Positions 6,701 through 18,017 of a stretch of DNA of 64,000 nt are shown here, in pieces. Positions within the stretch are counted from its first letter, which is position 1, and the number at the start of each line of letters is the position of its first letter. The notes beneath the pieces were generated by a model. The model saw only the letters and a list, made by a program, of their open reading frames with translations. It searched no databases and was not told the DNA's origin. The translations under genes were made by a program, and so were the position numbers. The DNA is from Acidobacteriota bacterium (GTDB taxonomy: Bacteria; Acidobacteriota; Vicinamibacteria; Marinacidobacterales; Marinacidobacteraceae), in the NCBI GenBank assembly GCA_022822745.1, contig JAJEAO010000006.1, forward strand, positions 9,509 through 73,508. The letters are read 5' to 3'.

Positions 6701-7421
6701 CGCCGAGTCGCTGGCGGAGACGCGGGCGATCCGCGCCGCGGGGGCCTACGGCTTCTTCCCCGCGGCCCGCGAAGGCGACGACCTCCTCCTGTGGGAGGAC
6801 GGGGACGCCCGGGGCTCTCCGCGCTTCCGCATCCCCACGCTGCGGCAGCAGGAGGACCGCCCCGGCCCGCGTCTCGCCGCGGCGGATTTCGTGGCGCCGG
6901 CGAACGCGGACGGCCCGGAGGATGTGGTCGGGCTCTTCTGCGTCACCGCCGGGCTGGGCCTCCGCGCCGCGGTGGCGGCGGCCGAGCGCCGCGAGGACGA
7001 CTACGAGGCGCTCCTGCTCCGCTCGCTCGCCGACCGCCTCGCCGAAGCCTTCGCCGAGAGACTCCACCAGCGGGCGCGGCGCGATCTCGGCTACGGAGCG
7101 GCGGAGGATCTCTCCCCCCGGGAACTCCTCCGGGGCCGCTACCGCGGGATCCGCCCGGCCCCGGGCTACCCGGCGACGCCCGATCTCTCGATTCTGCAGC
7201 CGGTCTTCGAAGCGCTCGGCGCGGAGGCGGCGCTCGGGGTCCGCCTCACCGAGTCCTTCGCCATCGAGCCCGCAGCCTCGGTCGCCGGGCTCTACTTCGG
7301 GAGCGCCGAGGCCCGGTATTTCTCCGTGGGGAGGATCGGCCGCGACCAGCTCGAGGACTACGCCGGCCGGCGGCAGATCCCGATGGAGCGCGCCGAAGCG
7401 CTCCTCCGCCGCGTGCTCTGA
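3786..7421 (+). CDS. metH: Cobalamin-dependent methionine synthase
   Basis: Full four-module architecture at 1211 aa: homocysteine S-methyltransferase (IVVFDGAGGTMLQS), pterin-binding, B12-binding (GDVHDIGKSIVGIVL) and the AdoMet activation domain. The ATG at 3786 is in frame with the long ORF, whose 5' extension I reject. Confidence 0.95.
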   Translation: MTSARTAFRQALSERIVVFDGAGGTMLQSLHLDEAGFRGERLADHPEPLSGLHDALCLTRPELVERVHRDYLAAGAEALTTNTFNANAVSLADYGASHLAFEMNREGARAARRAVEAFAPDRRVFVLGSIGPTNRTLGISPRVEDPGYRAVSWEALRSAYLEQARGLLAGGADLLLVETCFDTLNAKAALDACREALDEVDAGSGLIVSFTAVDRGGRNLTGQDSEAFWISVAHAGVTAAGVNCSFGAETMRPFVERLAACAPVPVGAVPNAGLPNDLGEYDETPATTAEALAELADSGLLNFTGGCCGTTPDHIAAVRAAVRGAAPRRLPEPRAGLRLAGTDPLVRPERAFLVVGERTNVTGSRRFARLIRRRKFEAAARVARGQVRGGANLLDVNMDAALLDSASRMRRFLRFLAMEPDIARLPILVDSSKLEVIETGLRCLPGKGVVNSLSLKDGESAFLEAARRVRRYGAAIVVMAFDEVGQAVDADRKTAICLRAYRLLTGIDVPPEDIVFDPNVLAVATGMAEHDRYAVEFLEALPRIAAACPGALLSGGISNLSFAFRGHETVRGAMNAVFLHHAIAAGLDMAIVNAGRLPVVDDIPAELRERVEDVIFARRPDATARLVALASRTGRRAGARRAKETWRGLPVGERLAHAVIHGILDHVGEDAIEAIGAEGSALSVIEGPLMDGMRVVGDRFGDGRMFLPQVVKSARVMKRAVARLRPHMETGERAAARRPRIVLATVRGDVHDIGKSIVGIVLACSGYEVEDLGVMVPADGILAAAEAGDAALVGLSGLITPSLDEMERFAVEMERRGDSRPLLIGGATTSARHTALRIAPRRSGPVVHVRDASRATGVARSLLGADRESYLAAVRERQARERGRRAGRGRRRLLPLEEARRRAPRFSRAKDVRASFLGVRLLPDVPLRELLPFVDWTPFFHAWQFRGTWPGLLDHPEAGPPARELLEAARARAESLAETRAIRAAGAYGFFPAAREGDDLLLWEDGDARGSPRFRIPTLRQQEDRPGPRLAAADFVAPANADGPEDVVGLFCVTAGLGLRAAVAAAERREDDYEALLLRSLADRLAEAFAERLHQRARRDLGYGAAEDLSPRELLRGRYRGIRPAPGYPATPDLSILQPVFEALGAEAALGVRLTESFAIEPAASVAGLYFGSAEARYFSVGRIGRDQLEDYAGRRQIPMERAEALLRRVL

Positions 7422-7458
7422 ATCGGGAGTTCAGGACGCGCCGGTCAGGATCCGGGGT

Positions 7459-7890
7459 TCAGGACGCGCCGGTCGGGATCCGGTACTTCTCCACCGGCGC
7501 GCCGCCGCGGAGGTGGCTCTCGATGACCTCCTCGAGCGCCTCCGGGGTCATGTTCCGGTACCAGACGGCTTCCGGATAGACGACCGCCACCGGACCCTCG
7601 GCGCAGATCCGGAGGCAGTCCGCCTTCGTCCGCGCGACCGGACCCCGGGCGGGACCGCAGGCGAGGCCCAGCGCATCGAGACGCGCCTTCAGCAGGCGCC
7701 AGGAACGGGCGCCCGTCTCGGGATCGCAGCACTTCGGCTTCGAGGGGTCGGCGCAGAGGAAGATGTGCCGGCGGACGCCCGCGAGCCCGAGAGCCTCCGC
7801 CTTGCGGGCCGCGGCCGAGGGTTCGCCGGCAGCGGCCGCTCCCTTCCCGCGGCCGGCGGCTGGCGTCTTCTCGCGGCCGGCGGCTGGCAA
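7459..7890 (-). CDS. Thioredoxin-like [2Fe-2S] ferredoxin domain protein
   Basis: The C-terminal approx. 100 aa read VRRHIFLCADPSKPKCCDPETGARSWRLLKARLDALGLACGPARGPVARTKADCLRICAEGPVAVVYPEAVWYRNMTPEALEEVIE, matching the TRX-like Fd family. There is no in-frame ATG; I propose a TTG at 7890. The N-terminal low-complexity region contains a 2x24-nt tandem repeat. Confidence 0.5.
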   Translation of the reverse strand: MPAAGREKTPAAGRGKGAAAAGEPSAAARKAEALGLAGVRRHIFLCADPSKPKCCDPETGARSWRLLKARLDALGLACGPARGPVARTKADCLRICAEGPVAVVYPEAVWYRNMTPEALEEVIESHLRGGAPVEKYRIPTGAS

Positions 7891-7910
7891 TTTCCCGCCC
7901 CGCGGCGCCC

Positions 7911-8504
7911 TCACGCTCCGTTCGCGTCCCGCAGGATCCCCGCCGGACACGAGACGCCGGTCCGGACGATCCCGCAGTAGCCCCCCGGATTCTTCGCCAG
8001 GTACTGCTGGTGGTACTCCTCGGCGTAGTAGAACGGCTGTTCCCGGCGGATCTCGGTCGTGACCTCCGGGAACCCGGCGGCGGCGAAACGAACCCCGTAG
8101 GCCTCCTTCGCCGCGACCGCCGCCCGGAACTGGGCGTCGTCCGCCGGGTAGATCGTGGAGCGGTACTGCGTGCCCACATCGTTCCCCTGACGCATGCCCT
8201 GGGTCGGGTCGTGGTTCTCCCAGAACACCCGCAGCAGCTCGCCGAACGAAACCCGGTCCGGCCGGAACACGACCCGAACGACTTCGGCGTGCCCGGTCCG
8301 ACCGCTGCAGACTTCCCGGTAGGTCGGGTTCCGGGTGATTCCGCCCGCATACCCGACCGCGGTGCTGTACACCCCCGGCAGCTTCCAGAAGAGCCGTTCG
8401 GCGCCCCAGAAACACCCCATCCCGACGAGAGTCTCCGCCGTCCCCTCGGGCCACGGGGGGGTCAGCGGCGCGTCGAGCACGAAATGGCGGCGGGGCACCC
8501 GCAT
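7911..8504 (-). CDS. msrA: Peptide methionine sulfoxide reductase A
   Basis: 197 aa with [28 protein letters not shown] and EYHQQYL signatures. The ATG at 8502-8504 was located by counting back from the stop. Confidence 0.9.
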
Positions 8505-8705
8505 GGCTTTCACCCGGTGCGGCAGGGCGGTGGCCGGGGAGGGCAGCGTGGAGGGACGGGCGAAGGGAATCACGGCGGCCGGGCAGTCTATCCGGGGTCG
8601 GCGACGGCTCCTCCCGCCCGCGCGGACGCCGTTCGACGGGACCGTCCTCGCCGGCGCGCGCCGGCGCCCGGATCCGGCGCGCTCCCGGACGCCCAGTACA
8701 AGCGG

Positions 8706-8802
8706 CGGCGACGGCCAGGAGGAATCCCGGACCGCACCGGCGACAGCCAGGAGGAATCCCGTACCGCGCCGGCGACCGCCAGGGGAAATCCCCGGACCGT
8801 GC
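8706..8802. repeat. Three perfect-tandem copies of a 32-33 bp unit (cggcgacRgccaggRgaatcccSgaccgYRc) in the msrA/ALDH divergent intergenic region
   Basis: Read directly: copies at 8706-8737, 8738-8769 and 8770-8802, followed immediately by TATACT (8805-8810) and the GTG start of the ALDH gene at 8821. Confidence 0.85.
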
Positions 8803-8804
8803 CT

Positions 8805-8810
8805 ATACTC
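8805..8810 (+). promoter_or_regulatory. Candidate -10 element (TATACT) 10 nt upstream of the ALDH GTG start; possible leaderless or short-leader transcript
   Basis: This is the only AT-rich hexamer in a >70% GC intergenic region, positioned directly after the iteron array. Confidence 0.35.
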
Positions 8811-8820
8811 GCCCCCGCCA

Positions 8821-10197
8821 GTGGGAGAGAGCCCGGAACGAGCCGTCGCCCGCGCTCGACGGCTCGCATCGTCGGGCGCCCCCGCCTCCCGCGCGTTCCG
8901 GCGCCGCGCGCTCGGCTCGCTCCAGCGCCTCCTCGTCTCCAGGCGTTCGGCGTGGGAGGCGGCGCTCGCCGAGGATCTGGGCGTCCCCCCCTTCGAGGCG
9001 TGGGCGGCGCAGACGGGCGTGGTCCTCCAGGAAATCCGCCACGCCCGACGAAGGCTCCGGGGCTGGATGCGACCCGAGCGGGTCGGCTCTCCCCTCGCGC
9101 TCCTCCCGTCGCGGAGCCGGATCGAGCCCGCGCCGCTCGGGGTCGTGCTCGTCATCGCTCCCTGGAACTACCCGCTGCAGTTGAGCCTCGCCCCGGCGGT
9201 CGCGGCGCTGGCGGCGGGGAACACCGTCGTCCTGAAGCCCTCGGAGCACGCCCCGGCGACGGCGGCGCTCCTCGCCGAACTCCTCCCGGCGGCGCTCCCC
9301 GAGGGCCTCGTGGAAGTGGTTCCCGGAGGTCCGGATGTCGGGGCGGCCCTCGGCGGTTCCGGTGCGTTCGATCACATTCTCTTCACCGGCAGCCGCGGCG
9401 TGGGGGCGAGAGTGGCCGAGGCCGCCGGACGCACCCTGACCCCCGTCACCCTCGAGCTGGGAGGCAAGTGCCCAGTCCTCCTCGACAAGACTGCGAGCCT
9501 GCGGGTCGCGGCCCGGCGCATTGCCTGGGGAAAGTTCCTGAACGCCGGACAGACCTGCGTCGCCCCCGACTTCGCCCTCGTTCCGTCGAACCGCGCCGAG
9601 CGGTTCCACCGGGAGCTCGGCCGCGCCCTGGACCGGTTCTACGGACCCGACCCCGAGCAGAGCCCCGACTACGCCCGCATCGCGCACCGGGCGCACTTCG
9701 ACCGGCTCGCCCGGCTGCTCGAGGGCCTCCCGATCCGGCGCGGCGGAACCCGCGACCGGGAAACGCTCTACTTCGCGCCGACCGTGACCGGCCCCTGGCC
9801 CGACGGCCACGCCGCGGGCCGGGAGGAGATCTTCGGGCCCATTCTCCCGGTCCTTCCGTACGACACCCTCGATCAGGCGATCACCCTCGCCGCCGAACTG
9901 CCCCCTCCGCTCGCGCTCCACATCTTCACCCGTCGGCGACGGGTCGCGCGACGGGTCGCGGCGGCGGTGCGCTCCGGCGCCGTCCTCGTGAACGACGCCG
10001 TGCTCCACTGCGCGAACCCGGCGCTCCCGTTCGGCGGCGTCGGGGCGAGCGGGTATGGGGCGTACCACGGCGTCCACGGGTTCGACCGGCTCTCCCAGCC
10101 GCGCGCCTGGCTGACCTCCCTGCCCTGGTTCGACATCCCGCTCCGCTACCCGCCCTACCGGGGCAAACTGCCCATCCTCCGCCGGATCCTTCGTTGA
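8821..10197 (+). CDS. Class 3 (fatty/aromatic) aldehyde dehydrogenase
   Basis: 458 aa with LELGGKCP and [11 protein letters not shown] (catalytic Cys), plus [12 protein letters not shown]. The GTG at 8821 gives the class-3 N-terminus ([17 protein letters not shown]...). Its stop overlaps the start of the next gene (TGATG). Confidence 0.85.
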
Positions 10198-12614
10198 TGA
10201 CCTCGAACCCCGCACTCGCCCTCCTCGATCCGGTGTCCGGCCGGCCGCCGCTGAAGCCGCCGGAGGCCGCCCGCATCGCGGCGGAGATCTGGGGCCTCGA
10301 AGCGGACGCATCGCCGCTGCCGGGCGAGCGCGACGCGAACTTCCTCCTGACCTCCCGCTCGGGCGAGCGGTTCGTGCTCAAGGTCTCGGGCGCCGCCGAA
10401 GTCCCGGAGCGGGTCGAACTCCAGACCGCGATGCCGGCGCACATCCGGAAACGCGACCCCCGCCTCCGGACGCCGCGCGCCGTCCCCGCCCGAACCGGAT
10501 CCCCGGGCCCGAACGGGATCGCTGCATGCCGCATTCGGGGCCGAAGCCACGCGGCCCGGCTCCTCGTCCACCAGGACGGCGTGCCCCTCTCGGCCTTCCC
10601 TTCCCCCGCCCCGGCGATTCTCGATGCCGTCGGAAGTTTCGCGGGGCGGCTCCAGCGGACCCTCGCCGACTTCGATCATCCCGGCCTCCGCGCCCGGGAC
10701 CTGCCGTGGGCGCCGCAGCACGGGGCGCGGGTGATCTCCGCCGCAACGGGGCGAATCGAGGGCCCGGCGCGGCGAGCTCTCCACGCCCGGACGGCGGATT
10801 CCGTCCTGCCGCGGCTGCCGGCCCTGCTCGCTCTGCCGCAGGCCCCCCTCCACAACGACCTGAACGACGACAACCTGCTCCTCGCCGCCGGCGCGCCGGA
10901 GAGCGCGGGCCCCGAGGATCTGGCCGTTCTGGATTTCGGCGACGCCCTCGAGGGACCGGCGGTCGTCGAGGTCGCGACCGCGGCGCTCTATGCGGCGGGG
11001 GCCTCCGACGAGCCCCTGGCGGCGGCCGCCGCGGTCCTCGCCGGATTCGTCCGGGAGCGGCCGCTCTCGCGGGCGGAAGCGGGCGCCTTCCGCACCGCCC
11101 TCGCGCTCCGGGCGCTGGTGAGCGGGGGCATCGCCGCCATCCGACGGGCCGAGGTGCCGGGCGCCGCCGCCGACCCCTACCTGATGACCAGCGAGGCCGC
11201 CGTGTGGCGCGTGCTGGCGGCCCTCGATCGGGAATCGGCGCGCGAGTCCGGGGCCCGCTTCCTCGAGGCCGCCGGTCTCGCTCCTCCCGGCGCAGCTCGA
11301 GCCGGAGGCGACGACCCGAGGCGCCTCCTCGCCCGCCGGCGTCGCTGGTTCAGCCGCGCCCTGAGCATCTCCTACGACGATCCGATCCCGGTCGTCCGGG
11401 GCGCGGGCGCCCGGCTCCACGACCCCGACGGACGAAGCTACCTCGACATGGTGAACAACGTCTGCCATGTCGGGCACGCCCACCCCCGGGTCGCGGGGGC
11501 GATCGCCCGGCAGGCGGCGCGCGTCAACACGAACACGCGCTTCCTCTACCGGGAGCTCACCGATTACGCCGAGCGCCTCCTCGCCACGCTGCCGGACCCG
11601 CTCGAAGTCGTCTTCTTCACGAACTCGGGGAGCGAGTCGAACGACCTCGCGCTCCGGATCGCGAGAAACCGGCTGGGACGCTCCGCCACGCTCGTCTTCG
11701 ACGGCGCCTACCACGGCAACCTCACCTCCCTCATCGAGATCAGTCCCTACAAGCTGGATGGCCCCGGGGGCCGGCCCGGTCCGCCGTGGCTGCACCGTCT
11801 GCCGCTGCCCGACGGGTTCCGGGGACGATTCCGAGCGGAGGCGCCCGACTTTCCCGACGCGATGATCGCGGACGCTCGCCGGCGGGTGGCGGCCGCGGGC
11901 CCGGCCACTCTCGTCTCGGAGGCGATCCTCGGCTGCGGGGGGCAGGTCGTGCCTCCGCCGGGCTACCTGCGGGCGCTCTACCGGGCGGTCCGGGACGGGG
12001 GCGGGCTCATCGTCGCCGACGAGGTCCAGACCGGTTTCGGACGGGTGGGGCCCGCGTTCTGGGCCTTCGTCGAGGCGCAGCGCGGACCCGAAGCCGCCGA
12101 GCCCCCCGTGGTCCCGGACATCGTGACCCTGGGCAAACCCGCCGGAAACGGCCATCCGCTCGGGGCCGTGGTCACGACCCGCGAGCTCGCGAACTCGTTC
12201 GAGACCGGGATGGAGTACTTCAACACCTACGGCGGCAACCCGGTCTCCTGCGCCGCCGGACTCGCGGTCCTCGACGTCATCGAGAGCGAGGACCTGGCGG
12301 CCCACGCGGAACGGGTCGGCAACCGGCTGCTCGACGGCCTGAACCGGCTCGCGAACCGGTACCCTCTCATCGGAGAAGCGCGCGGGCGCGGTCTGTTCCT
12401 CGGCTTCGAGCTGGTGCGGGATCCCGAGACCCGCGCTCCCGCGACCGCGGAGGCGCGACGGCTGGTGAACCGCCTCCGCCAGGCGCGCATCCTGAACAGC
12501 ACCGACGGCCCCGACGCGAACGTCATCAAGATCAAGCCGCCGCTTCCGTTCTCGGCGGCGGACGCGGACCACTACCTGGAAGTCCTCGATCGAACGCTGA
12601 GTACCCCCGAATGA
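10197..12614 (+). CDS. Bifunctional fusion: N-terminal APH-fold (hydroxylysine-kinase/HYKK-like) amino-alcohol kinase plus C-terminal class-III aminotransferase-fold phospho-lyase (AGXT2L/ETNPPL-like)
   Basis: N-domain has [19 protein letters not shown] and VLDFGDA (APH/HYKK motifs). C-domain has [16 protein letters not shown]...[47 protein letters not shown] and [12 protein letters not shown], nearly colinear with eukaryotic phospho-lyases as I remember them. 805 aa; the ATG shares its A with the upstream TGA. Confidence 0.9.
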
Positions 12615-13312
12615 GCCCGACCCGGACCCTGCCCCGCTGGAGCCTGGTCGAGGTTCCGCCCCCCGGCGCGCATCGGACGACGATCGTCTGGCTCCACGGG
12701 CTCGGCGCCGACGGCCGGGACTTCGCTCCGGTCATCCCGGCGCTGCGGCTGCCGCGCCCCCTCGGGGTCCGGTTCCTGTTCCCGGAGGCGCCCATCCGTC
12801 CGGTCACCCTGAACGGCGGGATGGCGATGCGCGCCTGGTACGACATCGGCTCCATCACCGACTCCCGTGAACTGAACCGGGACCAGCTCGACGAGTCCGT
12901 CTCCGGGGTGCGGGCGCTCCTCGCCGCCGAACAAGAGCGCGGGATCCCGCCCGAGCGTCAGCTCCTCGTGGGCTTCTCGCAGGGGGGCGCGGTCGCGCTG
13001 AGCGCCGCCACCGCACGGGGGCCGGACGGATCCCCGCCTCCCCCGATCGGGGGGCTGGCTGCGCTCTCGACCTACCTGCCGCAGCCGGAGCGGCTCGTTC
13101 CCGGGGGGCGGGCGCCGATCTTCCTCGCCCACGGCTACTACGACGAAACGGTCCCGTTCCAGGCGGGAGCCAGGACCCGGGACGCCCTGGTGGCGGCCGG
13201 GTGGACCACGGACTTCCACGGCTACGCGATGGGCCACGCGGTGTGCGAAGAAGAGATCCGGGCGCTGGGCGCCTTCTTTCGGCAGGCGCTCGGCGGCGAG
13301 GCCGAATCGTGA
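12611..13312 (+). CDS. Alpha/beta-hydrolase carboxylesterase/phospholipase family (Abhydrolase_2-like)
   Basis: GFSQGG nucleophile elbow, downstream D and H (HGYAMGHAV), about 233 aa. ATGA overlap with the previous stop. Confidence 0.8.
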   Translation: MSPTRTLPRWSLVEVPPPGAHRTTIVWLHGLGADGRDFAPVIPALRLPRPLGVRFLFPEAPIRPVTLNGGMAMRAWYDIGSITDSRELNRDQLDESVSGVRALLAAEQERGIPPERQLLVGFSQGGAVALSAATARGPDGSPPPPIGGLAALSTYLPQPERLVPGGRAPIFLAHGYYDETVPFQAGARTRDALVAAGWTTDFHGYAMGHAVCEEEIRALGAFFRQALGGEAES

Positions 13313-14328
13313 CCGGCCCCGAACCGGTCACCCTGGTCACCGGCTCCGCGGGCGAGATCGGGGCCAACCTGGTGCGGGAGCTCGTCCGCCGGGGCGACCG
13401 GGTCGTCACGGTGGACCTCCGACCCGGCCGAGAGGGATCGGGCGCCCTCGCTCACTTCGCCGGGGACATCACCGATCCGGCGCTCTGGAACGCGTTCGGG
13501 GCCCGCTACCTCCCCCGGACGACGTTCCACCTGGCCGCGGTGCTCTCCACCCACGCCGAGCGGAGCCCCACGCTCGCGCACCGGGTGAACATCGAGGGAA
13601 CGGCCCGGCTGCTGCGCCTCGCTCGCGACGCCGGATCGGCCGCGAACCCGGCGCGGTTCCTGTTTCCCAGCTCGATCGCCGTGTACGGCTTCCCGTCCCG
13701 ATCGCGGAAGGCGGCCGCGGGCAACGTGCGGGAAGACGAGCACCTCGATCCGGCCACGCTCTACGGACAGCAGAAGCTCTACATCGAGCGGCTCGGCGCC
13801 GCCCTCGAACGGGAGCGTCCGGGGCTCGATTTCCGAGCGGTCCGGTTCCCCGGGCTGATCTCCTGCGACACCGTGCCCCAGGGCGGCACGAGCGACTGGG
13901 CGCCGGAACTCCTCCACGCCGCCGCCCGCGGCGAGCCCTGCGCGTTCTTCGTCCGGGGCGACGCGCGGCTCCCGTTCTGCGCCATGCCGGACGCCGTCCG
14001 CGGCCTTCTCCAGCTCGCGGGCAGCGACCGGGCGAACCTGCGCCGGACCGCCTACAACCTGGGCGGATCCAGTTTCTCCGCCGATGAAGTCATTGCGCGC
14101 GTCCGGAGGGACTTCCCCGATGTCCGGGTTCACCGCGCGCTCGACGAGGAGCGGGACCGGATCGTTGCGAGCTGGCCGGGCGCGGTGGACGACGGCGCCG
14201 CGCGCCGCGACTTCGGCTGGGCGCCCGCCCACGACCGGGAGACCCTGTTCTCCCGCTACCTGATTCCCGGCATCCGGGCCCGCTACCGGCGGACTCGGGA
14301 CGAGCCGTCCGTCGCGGAGGTCCGATGA
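13309..14328 (+). CDS. Extended-SDR NAD-dependent epimerase/dehydratase-fold enzyme, L-threonine 3-dehydrogenase (TDH)-like
   Basis: TLVTGSAGEIG Rossmann motif. SSIAVYG, FPGLISCDTVPQGGTSDWAPELL, YNLGGSSFSADEV and ASWPGAVDDGAARRDFGW each match remembered signatures of SDR-type TDH. GTGA overlap with the previous stop. Confidence 0.75.
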   Translation: MTGPEPVTLVTGSAGEIGANLVRELVRRGDRVVTVDLRPGREGSGALAHFAGDITDPALWNAFGARYLPRTTFHLAAVLSTHAERSPTLAHRVNIEGTARLLRLARDAGSAANPARFLFPSSIAVYGFPSRSRKAAAGNVREDEHLDPATLYGQQKLYIERLGAALERERPGLDFRAVRFPGLISCDTVPQGGTSDWAPELLHAAARGEPCAFFVRGDARLPFCAMPDAVRGLLQLAGSDRANLRRTAYNLGGSSFSADEVIARVRRDFPDVRVHRALDEERDRIVASWPGAVDDGAARRDFGWAPAHDRETLFSRYLIPGIRARYRRTRDEPSVAEVR

Positions 14329-15092
14329 CGATGCAGCGCCCCGTTCCTTCCCCCCTGTGGCCCGGCCTCGCGGCCCCGCTGCTGTCGGCCGCTCTCGGAG
14401 CGGTCACCTACATCGGGCTCACGCGGCTCAGCCCGGACCCCGATCAGGACTATCTCCTCCGCCTCTCGGTGGTCGCGCTCGTCATGCTCGCGCCCCCGGT
14501 GTGGGCGCTGCGGCGCTTCGTCCTCGCCCGGCGCGCCGGAGCGCTCACGGCCGGCGGCTGGGCGGGCGCGGGAGTCGCGCTGCTGTCGCTGGGCCTCGTG
14601 GCCGCCCCCATCGGCGGCGCGCTCCGCCGCGCCCGCCAGGCGGCGAACCTCGCGCTCGAAGGGGTTCCGGCCCCTGAGTTCCGCGCCGCCGACCTCGACG
14701 GCAACGTCCACCGGCTCTCCGACCACGCCGGATCCGTCGTCCTCGTGAACATCTGGGCCACCTGGTGCCCGCCCTGCCGGGCCGAGATGCCCGAACTGGA
14801 CCGCCTCGCGAAGGAGCGGGCGGAACAGGGCTTCGCGGTCTTCGGGGTCTCCACCGAGGACGCCGCCACCCAGGAAGCCTTCCGCCGGGAGATGGTGTCG
14901 GTGGACTATCCGCTGCTCCTCCCCGACGCGCTCGCGGACGGCGTCATGCCGGACATCTTCACCGAGACCGCCCGCTACCCGGCGAACTTCCTGATCGACC
15001 GGGACGGACTCCTCCACCCGGCGCCGAGCACGGATCAGCCATTCTCGGCGCTCGAAGCGGCAGTGGACCGGCTCCTGGAAGACATCCGTTAG
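14325..15092 (+). CDS. Membrane-anchored TlpA/ResA-type thiol:disulfide oxidoreductase
   Basis: WATWCPPC motif in a thioredoxin fold, with an N-terminal TM segment. ATGA overlap with the TDH-like gene. Confidence 0.8.
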   Translation: MTMQRPVPSPLWPGLAAPLLSAALGAVTYIGLTRLSPDPDQDYLLRLSVVALVMLAPPVWALRRFVLARRAGALTAGGWAGAGVALLSLGLVAAPIGGALRRARQAANLALEGVPAPEFRAADLDGNVHRLSDHAGSVVLVNIWATWCPPCRAEMPELDRLAKERAEQGFAVFGVSTEDAATQEAFRREMVSVDYPLLLPDALADGVMPDIFTETARYPANFLIDRDGLLHPAPSTDQPFSALEAAVDRLLEDIR

Positions 15093-15120
15093 CGCCGCGC
15101 CGCGATGCCTGGAAGAAACC

Positions 15121-16575
15121 ATGAAGAACATCCTCCGGATTGCCCGGCGGCAGATCCACTCCATCCTCGAGACGCGCTCCACGATCCTCCTTCTGGTTCT
15201 CGTCGCCGCTCTCGGCATCGTCTCCGGCCTCGGCGCCCGCCACCACGCCGTCCGGGAAGCGGAGGCGCGGCTCGAACAGCAGTCCCTGGTGGAGCGCCAG
15301 TGGCTGGAGCAGCCGGGCCGTCATCCGCACCGGGTGATCCACTACGGGTTCCTGCTCTTCCGCGAAGAAGCGCCCCTCGCCTTCTTCGACCCCGGAGTCA
15401 GTCCCTGGGCCGGGACCGCGCTCTACCTCGAAGGGCACCGCCAGAACTCCGCCAGTTTCGGTGACGCGCGCCACGCGACCAGCGCGGCGAGCTTCGGACG
15501 GCTCACGCCGGCTGCCGTGCTCGGGCTCCTCGCGCCGCTGCTCATCATCGTCGCCGGGTTCGCCTCGGTGAGCGGCGAGCGGGAGCAGGGCACGCTGCCG
15601 CTGCTCCTGGCGCAGGGCGCGACCCCGGGGCAGATCGTGGCGGGGAAGTCGCTGGGCATCGGCGCGGCCGCAGCCGCCGCCGCGCTTCCCGTCGGGCTGG
15701 TGACCGCCGCCTTCATGGCGTTCGGTGGCGCAGAAGCGCCCTCGTGGCTCCGGGTCGGGGCGCTCGTCGCCACCTATGGCGCCTACCTGGCTGGGTGGGT
15801 GCTGGTCACGGTCTGGATCTCCTCGCGCCGGAAGTCCTCGGGCGCCGCTCTCGCCCACCTCGTCGCGCTGTGGGTCGTCCTGGGCGTCGGCGCGCCTCGC
15901 CTCGCCGCTTCCGTGGCGGCGGGACTCCATCCAGAGCCCTCGCGCGCCGAGCTCACGGCGCAGGTGCAGGCGGCGGAACGGCAAGTCGGCGAGAGCCACA
16001 ACCCCGACGACCCCTTCTTCGCCGCGCTGCGCGACGAGTACCTGACGCGCTACCAGGTGTCCTCGGTGGAGGAGCTTCCGGTCAACTGGCGAGGCCTGGT
16101 CAGCCGCGAGGGGGAGGCGGCAACGAGCCGCATCCACGAGGAGCACCAGCTCGAACTGCTGGGTGTTCACCAGCGTCAGAACCGCGTCATCGGATGGTTC
16201 GGGCTGCTCGCGCCGCACCTGGCGATGCGGGATCTCTCCATGTCGGCGGCGGGCACCGGACCCGAGGCAGTGGAGGCATTCCGGGCGCAGGCCGAAGCGC
16301 ACCGTTACGACCGCATCCAGCGCCTCAACGACCTCCACATCCACCAGATCCATCTCGAGAACGACCGCGCGCAGCGGCTGTCGCGGGAGGAGTGGGAGCG
16401 GTTTCCGGAGTTTCGGCTGGAACCGCCTTCGCTGCGTCAGGCCCTCGCGGACCGCCCGCAGGCGCTGGCCGGACTGGGGCTGTGGATGCTGGTCCCCTTG
16501 CTGGGGCTGGCGCTCGGTCGCGAACGGCTCTCGCGCGTGAGCGAGCCGGCGTCGAGAAAGGAGCCGGCGGCATGA
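15121..16575 (+). CDS. ABC-2-type transporter permease-like membrane protein (DUF3526-like)
   Basis: 484 aa with an N-terminal TM, a central 4-5 TM block and a C-terminal TM; the architecture recalls the paired DUF3526 permeases. No ATPase gene is adjacent. Confidence 0.55.
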   Translation: MKNILRIARRQIHSILETRSTILLLVLVAALGIVSGLGARHHAVREAEARLEQQSLVERQWLEQPGRHPHRVIHYGFLLFREEAPLAFFDPGVSPWAGTALYLEGHRQNSASFGDARHATSAASFGRLTPAAVLGLLAPLLIIVAGFASVSGEREQGTLPLLLAQGATPGQIVAGKSLGIGAAAAAAALPVGLVTAAFMAFGGAEAPSWLRVGALVATYGAYLAGWVLVTVWISSRRKSSGAALAHLVALWVVLGVGAPRLAASVAAGLHPEPSRAELTAQVQAAERQVGESHNPDDPFFAALRDEYLTRYQVSSVEELPVNWRGLVSREGEAATSRIHEEHQLELLGVHQRQNRVIGWFGLLAPHLAMRDLSMSAAGTGPEAVEAFRAQAEAHRYDRIQRLNDLHIHQIHLENDRAQRLSREEWERFPEFRLEPPSLRQALADRPQALAGLGLWMLVPLLGLALGRERLSRVSEPASRKEPAA

Positions 16576-18017
16576 GATCCACGCGGTGGCGACTGCTCCG
16601 GCTGGAATGGGCCCGGATGTTCCGTTCGGGCGGCTCCACGGTCGCGGCGTGCCTGGTGATCGCCCTCGGGGCGTACGCCGCCTGGGAGGGACGGCAGCGA
16701 CTCGGAGCGGTCGAAGCGAGCGCCGCAGCGGCCGAGGAAGGCTACCGGAGCCAGCTCGAATTTCTCGTCGGGCGCTATCCCCCGACGACGGAAGCCGGCG
16801 AGCTGCTGTACTACCTGACGTTTCCGGCTTCGCAGCCACCATCCCGTCTCTCGGGACTCGCGAGCGGGAGGGAGGCCGTCGAGACGGCGAATCTCCGGAT
16901 CCGGTTGCTCGCGCTCGAAGGGCAGCTCTACGAGCAGGAGACGCTCAATCCGCGTCTCGCCGCCGCCGGGAGGCTCGACCTCGGCTTCGTGCTGCTCGCG
17001 CTGCTGCCGCTTCTCATCATCGCCATCACCTACGATCTCGTCTCCGGGGAGCGCGAGCGCGGGACATGGCGGCTGGCGCAGCTCTTCGTCCCGTCGAGTC
17101 GGCTCGTGGGGGTGAAGACCGGCGCCCGGATCCTCGTGGTGGCAGGTCTCGTCGTTTCGCTGCTCGCGATCGGGGCGCTTGCCACCGGACTCGACGGGGA
17201 CGGGCGCCCCGGCTGGGCTGCGGCTCTCGTCGTCCTGCACACGGCGTTCTGGTTCGCTCTGTGTCTGGCGGTCGCCACGGGTCGCCGCTCATCCACGGCC
17301 AACGCGATGGTGCTGGTCGGCGCCTGGGTGGCGCTCACCTTCCTGGCGCCAGCGGTGCTGAGCCTCATGAACACGATCCTCCACCCGGCGCCGGAAGCTC
17401 TCGATCTGACCGTCCGCCAGCGACAGGGCTACCACGAAGCCTGGGATCTCCCTCGGGAGGAAACGATGGAGGAGTTCTTCGAGGACTACCCCGAGTGGAG
17501 CGACTGGATCGTCCCGCAGGATCGGTTCACCTGGGCCTGGTACTACGCGATGAATCACCGGGGGGATCAGGCCGCCCGCGAGACCTCACGCGCCTACCGG
17601 GATGTGCTCGCCCGCCGGGATGCCTGGGCCGGGCGGTGGTCCCTCCTCGTCCCGCCTCTCGCGGCCCGGATCGCCCTCGACCGGCTGGCGTCGAGCGACC
17701 TGGAAGCTCAGCTCGCTTACCAGGAGGCGGTCCGCAGCTATCACGAGCGGCTCAAGACGCACTTCCAGCCGATCCTGTTCGCGGAGACGCCGCACCCCGA
17801 AGTGGACTGGAGCCGAGTGCCGATCTTCGAACCCGCCGCTCCGGTGGAAGCGCCTGCCGCCGCAGGGCTCCCGGCCGCCGCCTCGCTGGCGCTCGCCTCG
17901 CTGCTGGCCCTCTGGGGCGCTCGTGGCCGCCGAGCGCTCTCGTTCAGCGCTCTCCGCCGAGGAAGCCGAACGCCATCACCGCCGGCACCGCGATTCCGTT
18001 CAGCGTCGCCGGGCTGA
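16572..18017 (+). CDS. Second DUF3526-like ABC-2 permease-like membrane protein
   Basis: Paralogous architecture to the previous gene with an ATGA overlap. The 3' end may be shorter than the ORF (convergent overlap with the TPR gene). Confidence 0.55.
   Translation: MRSTRWRLLRLEWARMFRSGGSTVAACLVIALGAYAAWEGRQRLGAVEASAAAAEEGYRSQLEFLVGRYPPTTEAGELLYYLTFPASQPPSRLSGLASGREAVETANLRIRLLALEGQLYEQETLNPRLAAAGRLDLGFVLLALLPLLIIAITYDLVSGERERGTWRLAQLFVPSSRLVGVKTGARILVVAGLVVSLLAIGALATGLDGDGRPGWAAALVVLHTAFWFALCLAVATGRRSSTANAMVLVGAWVALTFLAPAVLSLMNTILHPAPEALDLTVRQRQGYHEAWDLPREETMEEFFEDYPEWSDWIVPQDRFTWAWYYAMNHRGDQAARETSRAYRDVLARRDAWAGRWSLLVPPLAARIALDRLASSDLEAQLAYQEAVRSYHERLKTHFQPILFAETPHPEVDWSRVPIFEPAAPVEAPAAAGLPAAASLALASLLALWGARGRRALSFSALRRGSRTPSPPAPRFRSASPG

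Follow-up and report, generated by a model that had tools for sequence, protein, structure and literature searches.

The DNA analysed here, a 64,000-nucleotide stretch of contig JAJEAO010000006.1 from an uncultured marine acidobacterium (hereafter the window; G+C content about 73%), carries on its forward strand a cluster of four genes, which code for a class-3 aldehyde dehydrogenase (ALDH), a protein in which a kinase and a phospho-lyase are fused, an esterase, and a short-chain dehydrogenase/reductase (SDR) homologous to L-threonine 3-dehydrogenase (TDH). These four genes form a conserved unit, because their order is kept in two diverged lineages of Vicinamibacteria-type Acidobacteriota while the genes on both flanks differ. 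The cluster would break down a small vicinal amino alcohol by phosphorylation, elimination of phosphate and ammonia, and oxidation of the resulting aldehyde, the substrate being 1-aminopropan-2-ol, formed from threonine by way of aminoacetone, and/or ethanolamine; to this reading we give a probability of roughly 0.45.

In the plot of G+C at third codon positions (GC3 frame plot), five coding frames follow one another on the + strand between about 8.8 and 15.1 kb, those of the four genes and of a TlpA-like protein:

8821–10197, + strand: class-3 (non-acylating) NAD(P)+ aldehyde dehydrogenase, 458 aa
10197–12614, + strand: bifunctional kinase/phospho-lyase protein (the fusion), 805 aa
12611–13312, + strand: serine carboxylesterase of the Abhydrolase_2 family, 233 aa
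13309–14328, + strand: extended GalE-like SDR, homologue of L-threonine 3-dehydrogenase, 339 aa
14325–15092, + strand: TlpA/ResA-like membrane-anchored thiol:disulfide oxidoreductase, 255 aa

The five co-directional genes and their junctions (TGATG, ATGA, GTGA and ATGA) are as the initial annotation of this DNA had described them, according to both the frame plot and a direct reading of the sequence, and all five of its family assignments hold in comparisons with Pfam, NCBIfam and the sequences of the Protein Data Bank (PDB). The ALDH and the fusion overlap by 1 nt within the TGATG at 10195–10199 (stop TGA at 10195–10197, fusion ATG at 10197), the fusion and the esterase share the ATGA at 12611–12614 (fusion stop at 12612–12614, esterase ATG at 12611), the esterase and the SDR the GTGA at 13309–13312 (esterase stop at 13310–13312, SDR GTG at 13309), and the SDR and the TlpA-like gene the ATGA at 14325–14328 (SDR stop at 14326–14328, TlpA ATG at 14325). 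The last of these starts is ambiguous, there being a second ATG at 14331, and the gene callers applied to the contig give 253 aa (L004; loci are cited here by such numbers) versus 255 aa (L005). At the other end, position 8706 had been wrongly taken as the left boundary, as it lies out of the ALDH frame and is the first base of a tandem repeat; from 8548 to 8821 that frame is free of start codons, and the GTG at 8821, which gives 458 aa, was chosen as the start on account of the frame plot and of the relatives, whose gene calls are of 457–458 aa. The overlaps themselves are real, but the argument drawn from them, that the genes form one translationally coupled unit, is weak alone, because 1-nt and 4-nt overlaps are usual in this genome of 73% G+C; the gene table of L004 contains 4-nt overlaps between several unrelated neighbour pairs of the same contig. 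The unit rests on the conserved gene order, and not on the overlaps.

The order ALDH-fusion-esterase-SDR is found in L001–L003, L019, L034, L086–L088, L093 and L094; two fragments of the same cluster type show a part of it, fusion-esterase-SDR in L121 and esterase-SDR in L095. The relatives of the window are annotated as Vicinamibacteria or Acidobacteriota, and in every cluster-bearing locus the esterase directly follows the fusion. In the close lineage (L001–L003 and L086–L088), whose fusion C-domains are 70–86% identical to that of the window, the order is ALDH-fusion-esterase-SDR-TlpA, and the genes upstream of the block differ in L087 and L088. In the distant lineage (L034, L093 and L094), where identity is 59–61% for the fusion and 46–50% for the SDR, the order is Exo_endo_phos-ALDH-fusion-esterase-SDR, without TlpA. 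In 80 diverse genomes that hold a relative of the fusion, the flanks of this gene were searched with the window proteins, and in two of them, one of Vicinamibacteria (L019) and one of Acidobacteriota (L034), it is accompanied by the ALDH, the esterase and the SDR. In the others it is either solitary or, as seen in three lineages, next to genes of lysine catabolism. No general neighbour of the fusion emerged from all-against-all clustering of the flanking open reading frames (ORFs) of the 80 genomes, the commonest family being present in 8 loci and unrelated. Thus the neighbourhood, on whose conservation in related genomes the initial annotation had made its proposal depend, is indeed conserved, but only within Vicinamibacteria-type Acidobacteriota. 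The description of the module as shell-less also stands for the 64 kb, since the Pfam-based gene tables of the contig and of its relatives contain neither the BMC nor the EutN family of shell proteins, and a tblastn search of the window with an approximate PduA query gave no match.

The fusion consists of a kinase domain of APH fold (residues 1 to ~365; 10197 to ~11300) and a lyase domain of the AGXT2L/ETNPPL type, dependent on pyridoxal phosphate (PLP; residues ~376–805; ~11322–12611), which Pfam recognises as APH (39–281) and Aminotran_3 (396–801). The lyase domain scores 426 bits against human ethanolamine-phosphate phospho-lyase (ETNPPL, 6tor), with which it shares 50% identity over 403 columns; its second-best match in the PDB is the Arthrobacter phospholyase (5g4i), with 305 bits, and the next, the ACL racemase, dialkylglycine decarboxylase and GABA aminotransferase (GABA-AT), reach at most 205 bits. 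In an alignment of 23 sequences, the window protein included, the motifs GKPxGNGHP, with the PLP lysine (K647), and ADEVQ (D608) are invariant. By sequence, then, the C-domain falls among the characterised phospho-lyases rather than the true transaminases, as the initial annotation had proposed, and a 1,2-elimination activity is predicted for it.

As regards the kinase domain, its motifs H219-x-D221-x-N223-D224, N226 and D246-F-G-D (of the HxDxxxxN and DFG-like types) are invariant or nearly so. A sequence search of the PDB with this domain gave no match; its AlphaFold model (pLDDT 92.5), compared with the PDB by Foldseek, is closest to homoserine kinase II (2ppq), N-acetylhexosamine kinase (NahK) and aminopropanol kinase (6ef6), antibiotic APH structures ranking lower, with values 3–5 orders of magnitude weaker. 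In NCBIfam it matches only the fused-family models PRK06148 and PRK06149, followed by homoserine kinase, and no antibiotic APH model at E ≤ 1. Both comparisons favour metabolite kinases, so that the second of the identities that the initial annotation had offered for checking, an N-domain other than an antibiotic APH, is likewise upheld.

The fused family presents two architectures, one of kinase and lyase (~770–805 aa) and another in which an M23-peptidase-like domain lies between them (~1025 aa). The protein of the window matches PRK06148 with 777 bits, below the cut-off of 1128, because it lacks this middle domain, which its nearest relatives possess and whose absence appears as a gap of ~220–245 residues after residue 363–365. 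These three-domain relatives share the same operon, their C-domain is ~75% identical to that of the window fusion, and the window kinase domain is 45–53% identical to theirs versus 25–38% to those of other two-domain proteins. By these comparisons the M23-like domain looks like a secondary and recent loss in the window fusion, which suggests that it is dispensable for the pathway. The joining of kinase and lyase in one chain had been regarded as a distinguishing trait; it is present, but it is not new, bacterial proteins of this kind having been recognised by 2012.

The two genes on either side of the fusion belong to well-defined families. The ALDH (Pfam Aldedh, 285 bits) scores 344–360 bits against its best PDB matches, which are ALDH3A1, bacterial enzymes of class 3 and the fatty aldehyde dehydrogenase ALDH3A2, versus at most 170 bits for enzymes of classes 1 and 2; as is typical of class 3, it is ~450 aa long and lacks the N-terminal extension found in classes 1 and 2, and its translation keeps the catalytic Asn, Glu and Cys in the motifs PWNYP, LELGGK and GQTCVAPD. 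The esterase (Pfam PF02230, Abhydrolase_2, 125.6 bits against a cut-off of 23) is closest in the PDB to PA3859 of P. aeruginosa (154 bits), carboxylesterase II of P. fluorescens and human APT1 and APT2, and its Ser-Asp-His triad can be recognised in GFSQGG, in the Asp of YYDETVP and in the His of MGHAV. It is, to judge from these matches, a member of the phospholipase/carboxylesterase family, which comprises acyl-protein thioesterases and lysophospholipases; no signal peptide was found in it, and the protein is cytoplasmic.

In the PDB, the 18 entries that match the SDR best are all L-threonine dehydrogenases of the SDR type, the next match having 51 bits, although the identity of the SDR to characterised TDHs is modest (112–167 bits). 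It has the NAD-binding GxxGxxG, the catalytic Ser, Tyr and Lys, the GGT[TS]D[YW]A and the SWP that define the TDH family, and its motifs TGSAGEIG, PSSIAVYG, YGQQK, GGTSDWA and SWPGAVDD align with TDH structures and are invariant in the clade. The oxidation of L-threonine is predicted from these features, and another vicinal amino alcohol could be the substrate. Its homologues comprise the cluster clade, with 57–99% identity, and then there is a step down to ~50%. At this level lies the outgroup, sampled through a scan of metagenomes with the SDR alignment that provided 80 loci (L095–L174), one or two of which are instances of the cluster. In 7 of the ~65 loci with enough flank, the outgroup SDR adjoins kbl (glycine C-acetyltransferase; 444 bits in NCBIfam, where it is the best family, just below its cut-off). 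By contrast, tblastn found no kbl in the 64-kb window, and none is present in any cluster-bearing locus. Since kbl neighbours the SDR in part of the nearest outgroup, the cluster SDR is, on sequence grounds, a descendant of the threonine dehydrogenases of the tdh-kbl type that has lost its kbl partner. In 6 loci the outgroup SDR is also followed closely by thrB, which codes for a homoserine kinase of the GHMP type (342 bits) and is, after kbl, a second neighbour related to threonine.

If these activities are placed in order, the cluster would constitute a four-gene cytoplasmic module that dispenses with coenzyme B12, with CoA and with a microcompartment shell. The N-domain of the fusion would phosphorylate a hydroxyl next to a terminal amine, its C-domain, a PLP enzyme of the ETNPPL/PHYKPL type, would eliminate phosphate and ammonia to leave an aldehyde, and the class-3 ALDH would oxidise this aldehyde to the free acid. 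The TDH-like SDR would supply the substrate by oxidising L-threonine to 2-amino-3-oxobutanoate, which, lacking a kbl partner, would decarboxylate spontaneously to aminoacetone; the latter would be reduced to 1-aminopropan-2-ol, long known as a substrate of amino-alcohol kinases and phospho-lyases, possibly by the same SDR with the NADH that it has just produced, and after phosphorylation this would give propanal, NH3 and Pi, and finally propionate. Ethanolamine would be a likely parallel substrate, converted by the same enzymes into acetaldehyde and then acetate, and the esterase would perhaps cleave an ester-linked precursor to set the amino alcohol free.

Several points weigh against this scheme. 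The product of a strict TDH, aminoacetone, has no hydroxyl for the kinase to act upon, and the reducing step has no assigned gene; the esterase is conserved as strictly as the other three genes and is left without a role in the core of the scheme; class-3 ALDHs usually favour medium-chain or aromatic aldehydes over propanal or acetaldehyde; kinases and lyases of this family are found beside lysine-catabolism genes in three other lineages, which points to 5-hydroxylysine; and the cluster contains no transporter or regulator that would hint at the inducer.

The esterase is explained by another reading, the scavenging of phospholipid head groups or phosphorus, in which it would act as a (lyso)phospholipase or lipase that frees glycerophosphoethanolamine, ethanolamine or phosphoethanolamine, the fusion would yield acetaldehyde, NH3 and Pi, the ALDH would take acetaldehyde or a fatty aldehyde, and the SDR would have a side role. 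That its family includes lysophospholipases and APT1, that the best match of the lyase is a phosphoethanolamine enzyme, and that fatty aldehyde dehydrogenases of the ALDH3A2 type are among the best matches of the ALDH would all agree with it, as would the gene that immediately precedes the ALDH in the distant lineage (L034 5466–6278, L093 5764–6504 and L094 4289–5029, overlapping the ALDH by 1 nt in L094), which codes for a cytoplasmic protein of 246 aa of the Exo_endo_phos superfamily of phosphodiesterases and phosphatases; in L094, a PstS-like binding protein and a type-I phosphodiesterase are also near the cluster. However, the matches of the Exo_endo_phos protein are generic and include no relative of solved structure, the protein is widespread at 67–85% identity, and its gene is not beside the cluster in L175, the one other lineage that was checked, for which reasons it was kept only as a weak hint and not taken to indicate a phosphodiester substrate. 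Furthermore, the strictly conserved TDH-like SDR is left unexplained, the cluster has neither a diesterase of the GlpQ/UgpQ type nor an ethanolamine permease, and all its proteins are cytoplasmic, so we consider scavenging unlikely. The catabolism of 5-hydroxylysine, similar to that by HYKK and PHYKPL, seems less probable still; here 5-hydroxy-L-lysine would be phosphorylated and converted into 2-aminoadipate semialdehyde and then 2-aminoadipate. Some members of the kinase/lyase family probably do degrade hydroxylysine, as the three lineages mentioned above, all of them cultured, indicate: in Undibacterium (L026 8299–12391), where kinase and lyase are separate ORFs, the neighbour is an L-piperidine-6-carboxylate (P6C) dehydrogenase (806 bits, cut-off 730), in Shewanella abyssi (L027 7488–12334) the fusion adjoins a saccharopine dehydrogenase/LKR, and in Pedobacter steynii (L033 9959–13162) the neighbour is a 2-oxoadipate dioxygenase/decarboxylase (HGLS). 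Nevertheless, the ALDH of the window is of class 3 and not of the ALDH7/P6C-dehydrogenase type, the kinase domain of the cluster clade is just 25–38% identical to its two-domain relatives, there is no further lysine-pathway gene nearby, and both the TDH-like SDR and the esterase would be without a role.

It could also be argued that there is no common pathway at all, and that these genes are only conserved neighbours whose tight junctions reflect the compact packing of a high-GC genome. The frequency of 4-nt overlaps among unrelated neighbours of the contig would fit this, as would the wider synteny (MetH, msrA, TPR, HEAT, S41 peptidase and TatC), which is also kept in close relatives, the TlpA-like gene, which exemplifies a conserved overlapping neighbour unrelated to the pathway, and the lack of these partners in 76 of the 80 other fusion-carrying genomes. 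Against this, the order and adjacency of the block are kept while both flanks change (L087, L088, L093 and L094 compared with the window) and while sequence identity falls to 46–61% across these loci, neither the esterase nor the SDR clade has been seen beside the fusion without the others, and the chemistry is coherent for three of the four genes; mere neighbourhood is therefore improbable. Finally, the fusion could combine an ordinary class-III aminotransferase, of the GABA, ornithine or beta-alanine type, with an antibiotic-resistance APH. This is what the Pfam names (Aminotran_3 and APH), taken by themselves, would say, and many NCBIfam transaminase models do match, below their cut-offs; but the best transaminase score is less than half of that of ETNPPL, and on the kinase side both the NCBIfam result and the position of the antibiotic APH structures below the metabolite kinases speak against it, which makes this the least credible of all the readings, and a very improbable one.

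Downstream of the four genes, the TlpA-like protein, which was included in the initial annotation as the fifth member of an operon, does not belong to the conserved unit, since it accompanies the cluster in one lineage only and at a variable spacing. In L001, L002, L019 and L086–L088 it comes after the SDR with a spacing of −4 to +273 nt, and it is absent from the more distant cluster lineage (L034, L093, L094 and L121). Three hydrophobic segments are present at its N-terminus; it contains the thioredoxin motif WCPPC, matches AhpC-TSA/Redoxin in Pfam and, below their cut-offs, the TlpA/ResA models of NCBIfam, and is a membrane or periplasmic protein, in contrast to the other four, which have no signal peptide. 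As it lies within a syntenic block with the downstream TPR, HEAT, S41 and TatC genes, it is probably an envelope redox neighbour outside the catabolic pathway. Two ABC-2/DUF3526 permease genes (15121–16575 and 16572–18017) are situated between it and the TPR gene, also in L001, and are missing at the same position in L002 and L086–L088, which represents an insertion or deletion within the conserved synteny. On the other side, msrA (7911–8573, − strand) diverges from the cluster and is overlapped by a small gene (7459–7950, − strand) that has no Pfam match and several Cys in its C-terminal part. The pair of msrA, a methionine sulfoxide reductase gene, and the TlpA-like gene flanks the block in the window, L001, L002, L019 and L086, and does not in L087 or L088.

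The divergent intergenic region between msrA and the ALDH, of 247 nt, contains, outside the ALDH gene, the following repeat:

8706–8799, no strand assigned: tandem repeat, 2.9 copies of a 32-nt unit with consensus CGGCGACAGCCAGGAGGAATCCCGGACCGCAC (Tandem Repeats Finder score 137, 87% matches)

Every copy includes AGGAGG, and the unit does not occur again in the window. Among 174 fetched loci the repeat is present in two, both of which are the same contig as the window, and the msrA/ALDH spacer of the relatives is much shorter (~30–105 nt) and without repeat. It could be an operator array, an element of the 5′ untranslated region, or a plain expansion. A scan of 7000–16800 against Rfam at E ≤ 1 found no riboswitch or other RNA, and neither the cluster nor the region upstream of it showed a sigma-70-like promoter or a convincing intrinsic terminator, only four weak terminator-like hairpins, a number that does not exceed the count in shuffled sequences.

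What the cluster offers is a defined four-gene context for the bacterial fusion family in Acidobacteriota that are abundant, in soils as well as in the sea, and uncultured, along with candidate substrates that can be tested: (i) threonine, aminoacetone and 1-aminopropan-2-ol; (ii) ethanolamine; and (iii) 5-hydroxylysine. If the proposed pathway were true, these bacteria would be able to use amino alcohols for carbon, nitrogen and possibly phosphorus independently of B12, CoA and a shell, and functions would be gained for a TDH paralogue and for an esterase. A catabolic route not previously described is possible, if doubtful, because the esterase and the kbl-less TDH homologue are strictly co-conserved with the kinase/phospho-lyase and the class-3 ALDH; it could be a CoA-independent conversion of threonine to propionate, redox-neutral in that the SDR would oxidise threonine and re-reduce aminoacetone, or the catabolism of an amino alcohol bound as an ester, for example in a lipid head group or some other natural ester, which has so far gone unrecognised as a substrate of bacteria, and either would be the first physiological role for the bacterial APH+AGXT2L fusions.

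In relation to known systems, bacterial bi- and tri-functional proteins with APH and AGXT2L domains reportedly provided Veiga-da-Cunha and colleagues, in 2012, with the clue to the human enzymes HYKK, PHYKPL and ETNPPL. The vertebrate system of HYKK/AGPHD1 with PHYKPL (AGXT2L2) or ETNPPL (AGXT2L1) resembles that of the window in that an APH-fold kinase is followed by a PLP-dependent elimination on a class-III fold that yields an aldehyde; it differs in that the window has both activities on one chain, in the company of a class-3 ALDH, an esterase and a TDH-like SDR. To our knowledge, the bacterial fusions have never been characterised nor their own substrates determined. A still older precedent is the route of amino alcohol kinase, O-phosphate phospho-lyase and aldehyde dehydrogenase that Jones, Faulkner and Turner are said to have described in the Biochemical Journal in 1973–74 for Pseudomonas and Erwinia, with ethanolamine, 1-aminopropan-2-ol and aminoacetone. 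Its four activities could come from the SDR, the fusion and the ALDH of the window, and it likewise needs no shell or B12, whereas the esterase has no counterpart in it and the host of the window is an uncultured acidobacterium; we know of no assignment of genes to this route.

The tdh-kbl operon is comparable in that the SDR of the window is homologous to its TDH, with the family motifs intact; but in the window, where kbl is lacking and the partner genes are those of the fusion, the ALDH and the esterase, the carbon would go to aminoacetone and not to glycine and acetyl-CoA. A1RDF1 of Arthrobacter aurescens TC1 (PDB 5G4I) is an O-phosphoethanolamine phospho-lyase homologous to class-III transaminases (Cuetos et al., 2016, cited in PMC6750192); unlike the fusion, it consists of the lyase alone, with no kinase attached, and the lyase domain of the window is closer to the human enzyme than to A1RDF1. 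A further parallel is with the microcompartment of Mycobacterium smegmatis and Rhodococcus named RMM/AAUM, which is reported to serve the utilisation of aminoacetone and 1-amino-2-propanol (Axen et al., 2014, PMC4207490; Mallette and Kimber, 2018). Its chemistry runs in the same order, with an amino-alcohol dehydrogenase, an APH-fold aminopropanol kinase (6ef6, the third-best fold for the N-domain, although only ~19% identical to the window kinase and undetected by sequence search), a class-III-fold enzyme and an aldehyde dehydrogenase. The window, however, has no shell genes in its 64 kb and has an added esterase, its dehydrogenase is a GalE-like TDH homologue and not a classical SDR, and its ALDH is a non-acylating class-3 enzyme, so that no acyl-CoA would be formed. 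In summary, both the fusion and the logic of kinase, phospho-lyase and aldehyde dehydrogenase were already known, and the cluster introduces no new principle; what appears to be undescribed is the set of four genes itself, a non-acylating class-3 ALDH, the fusion, an esterase and a TDH homologue without kbl, shell-less and present only in Acidobacteriota of the Vicinamibacteria type.

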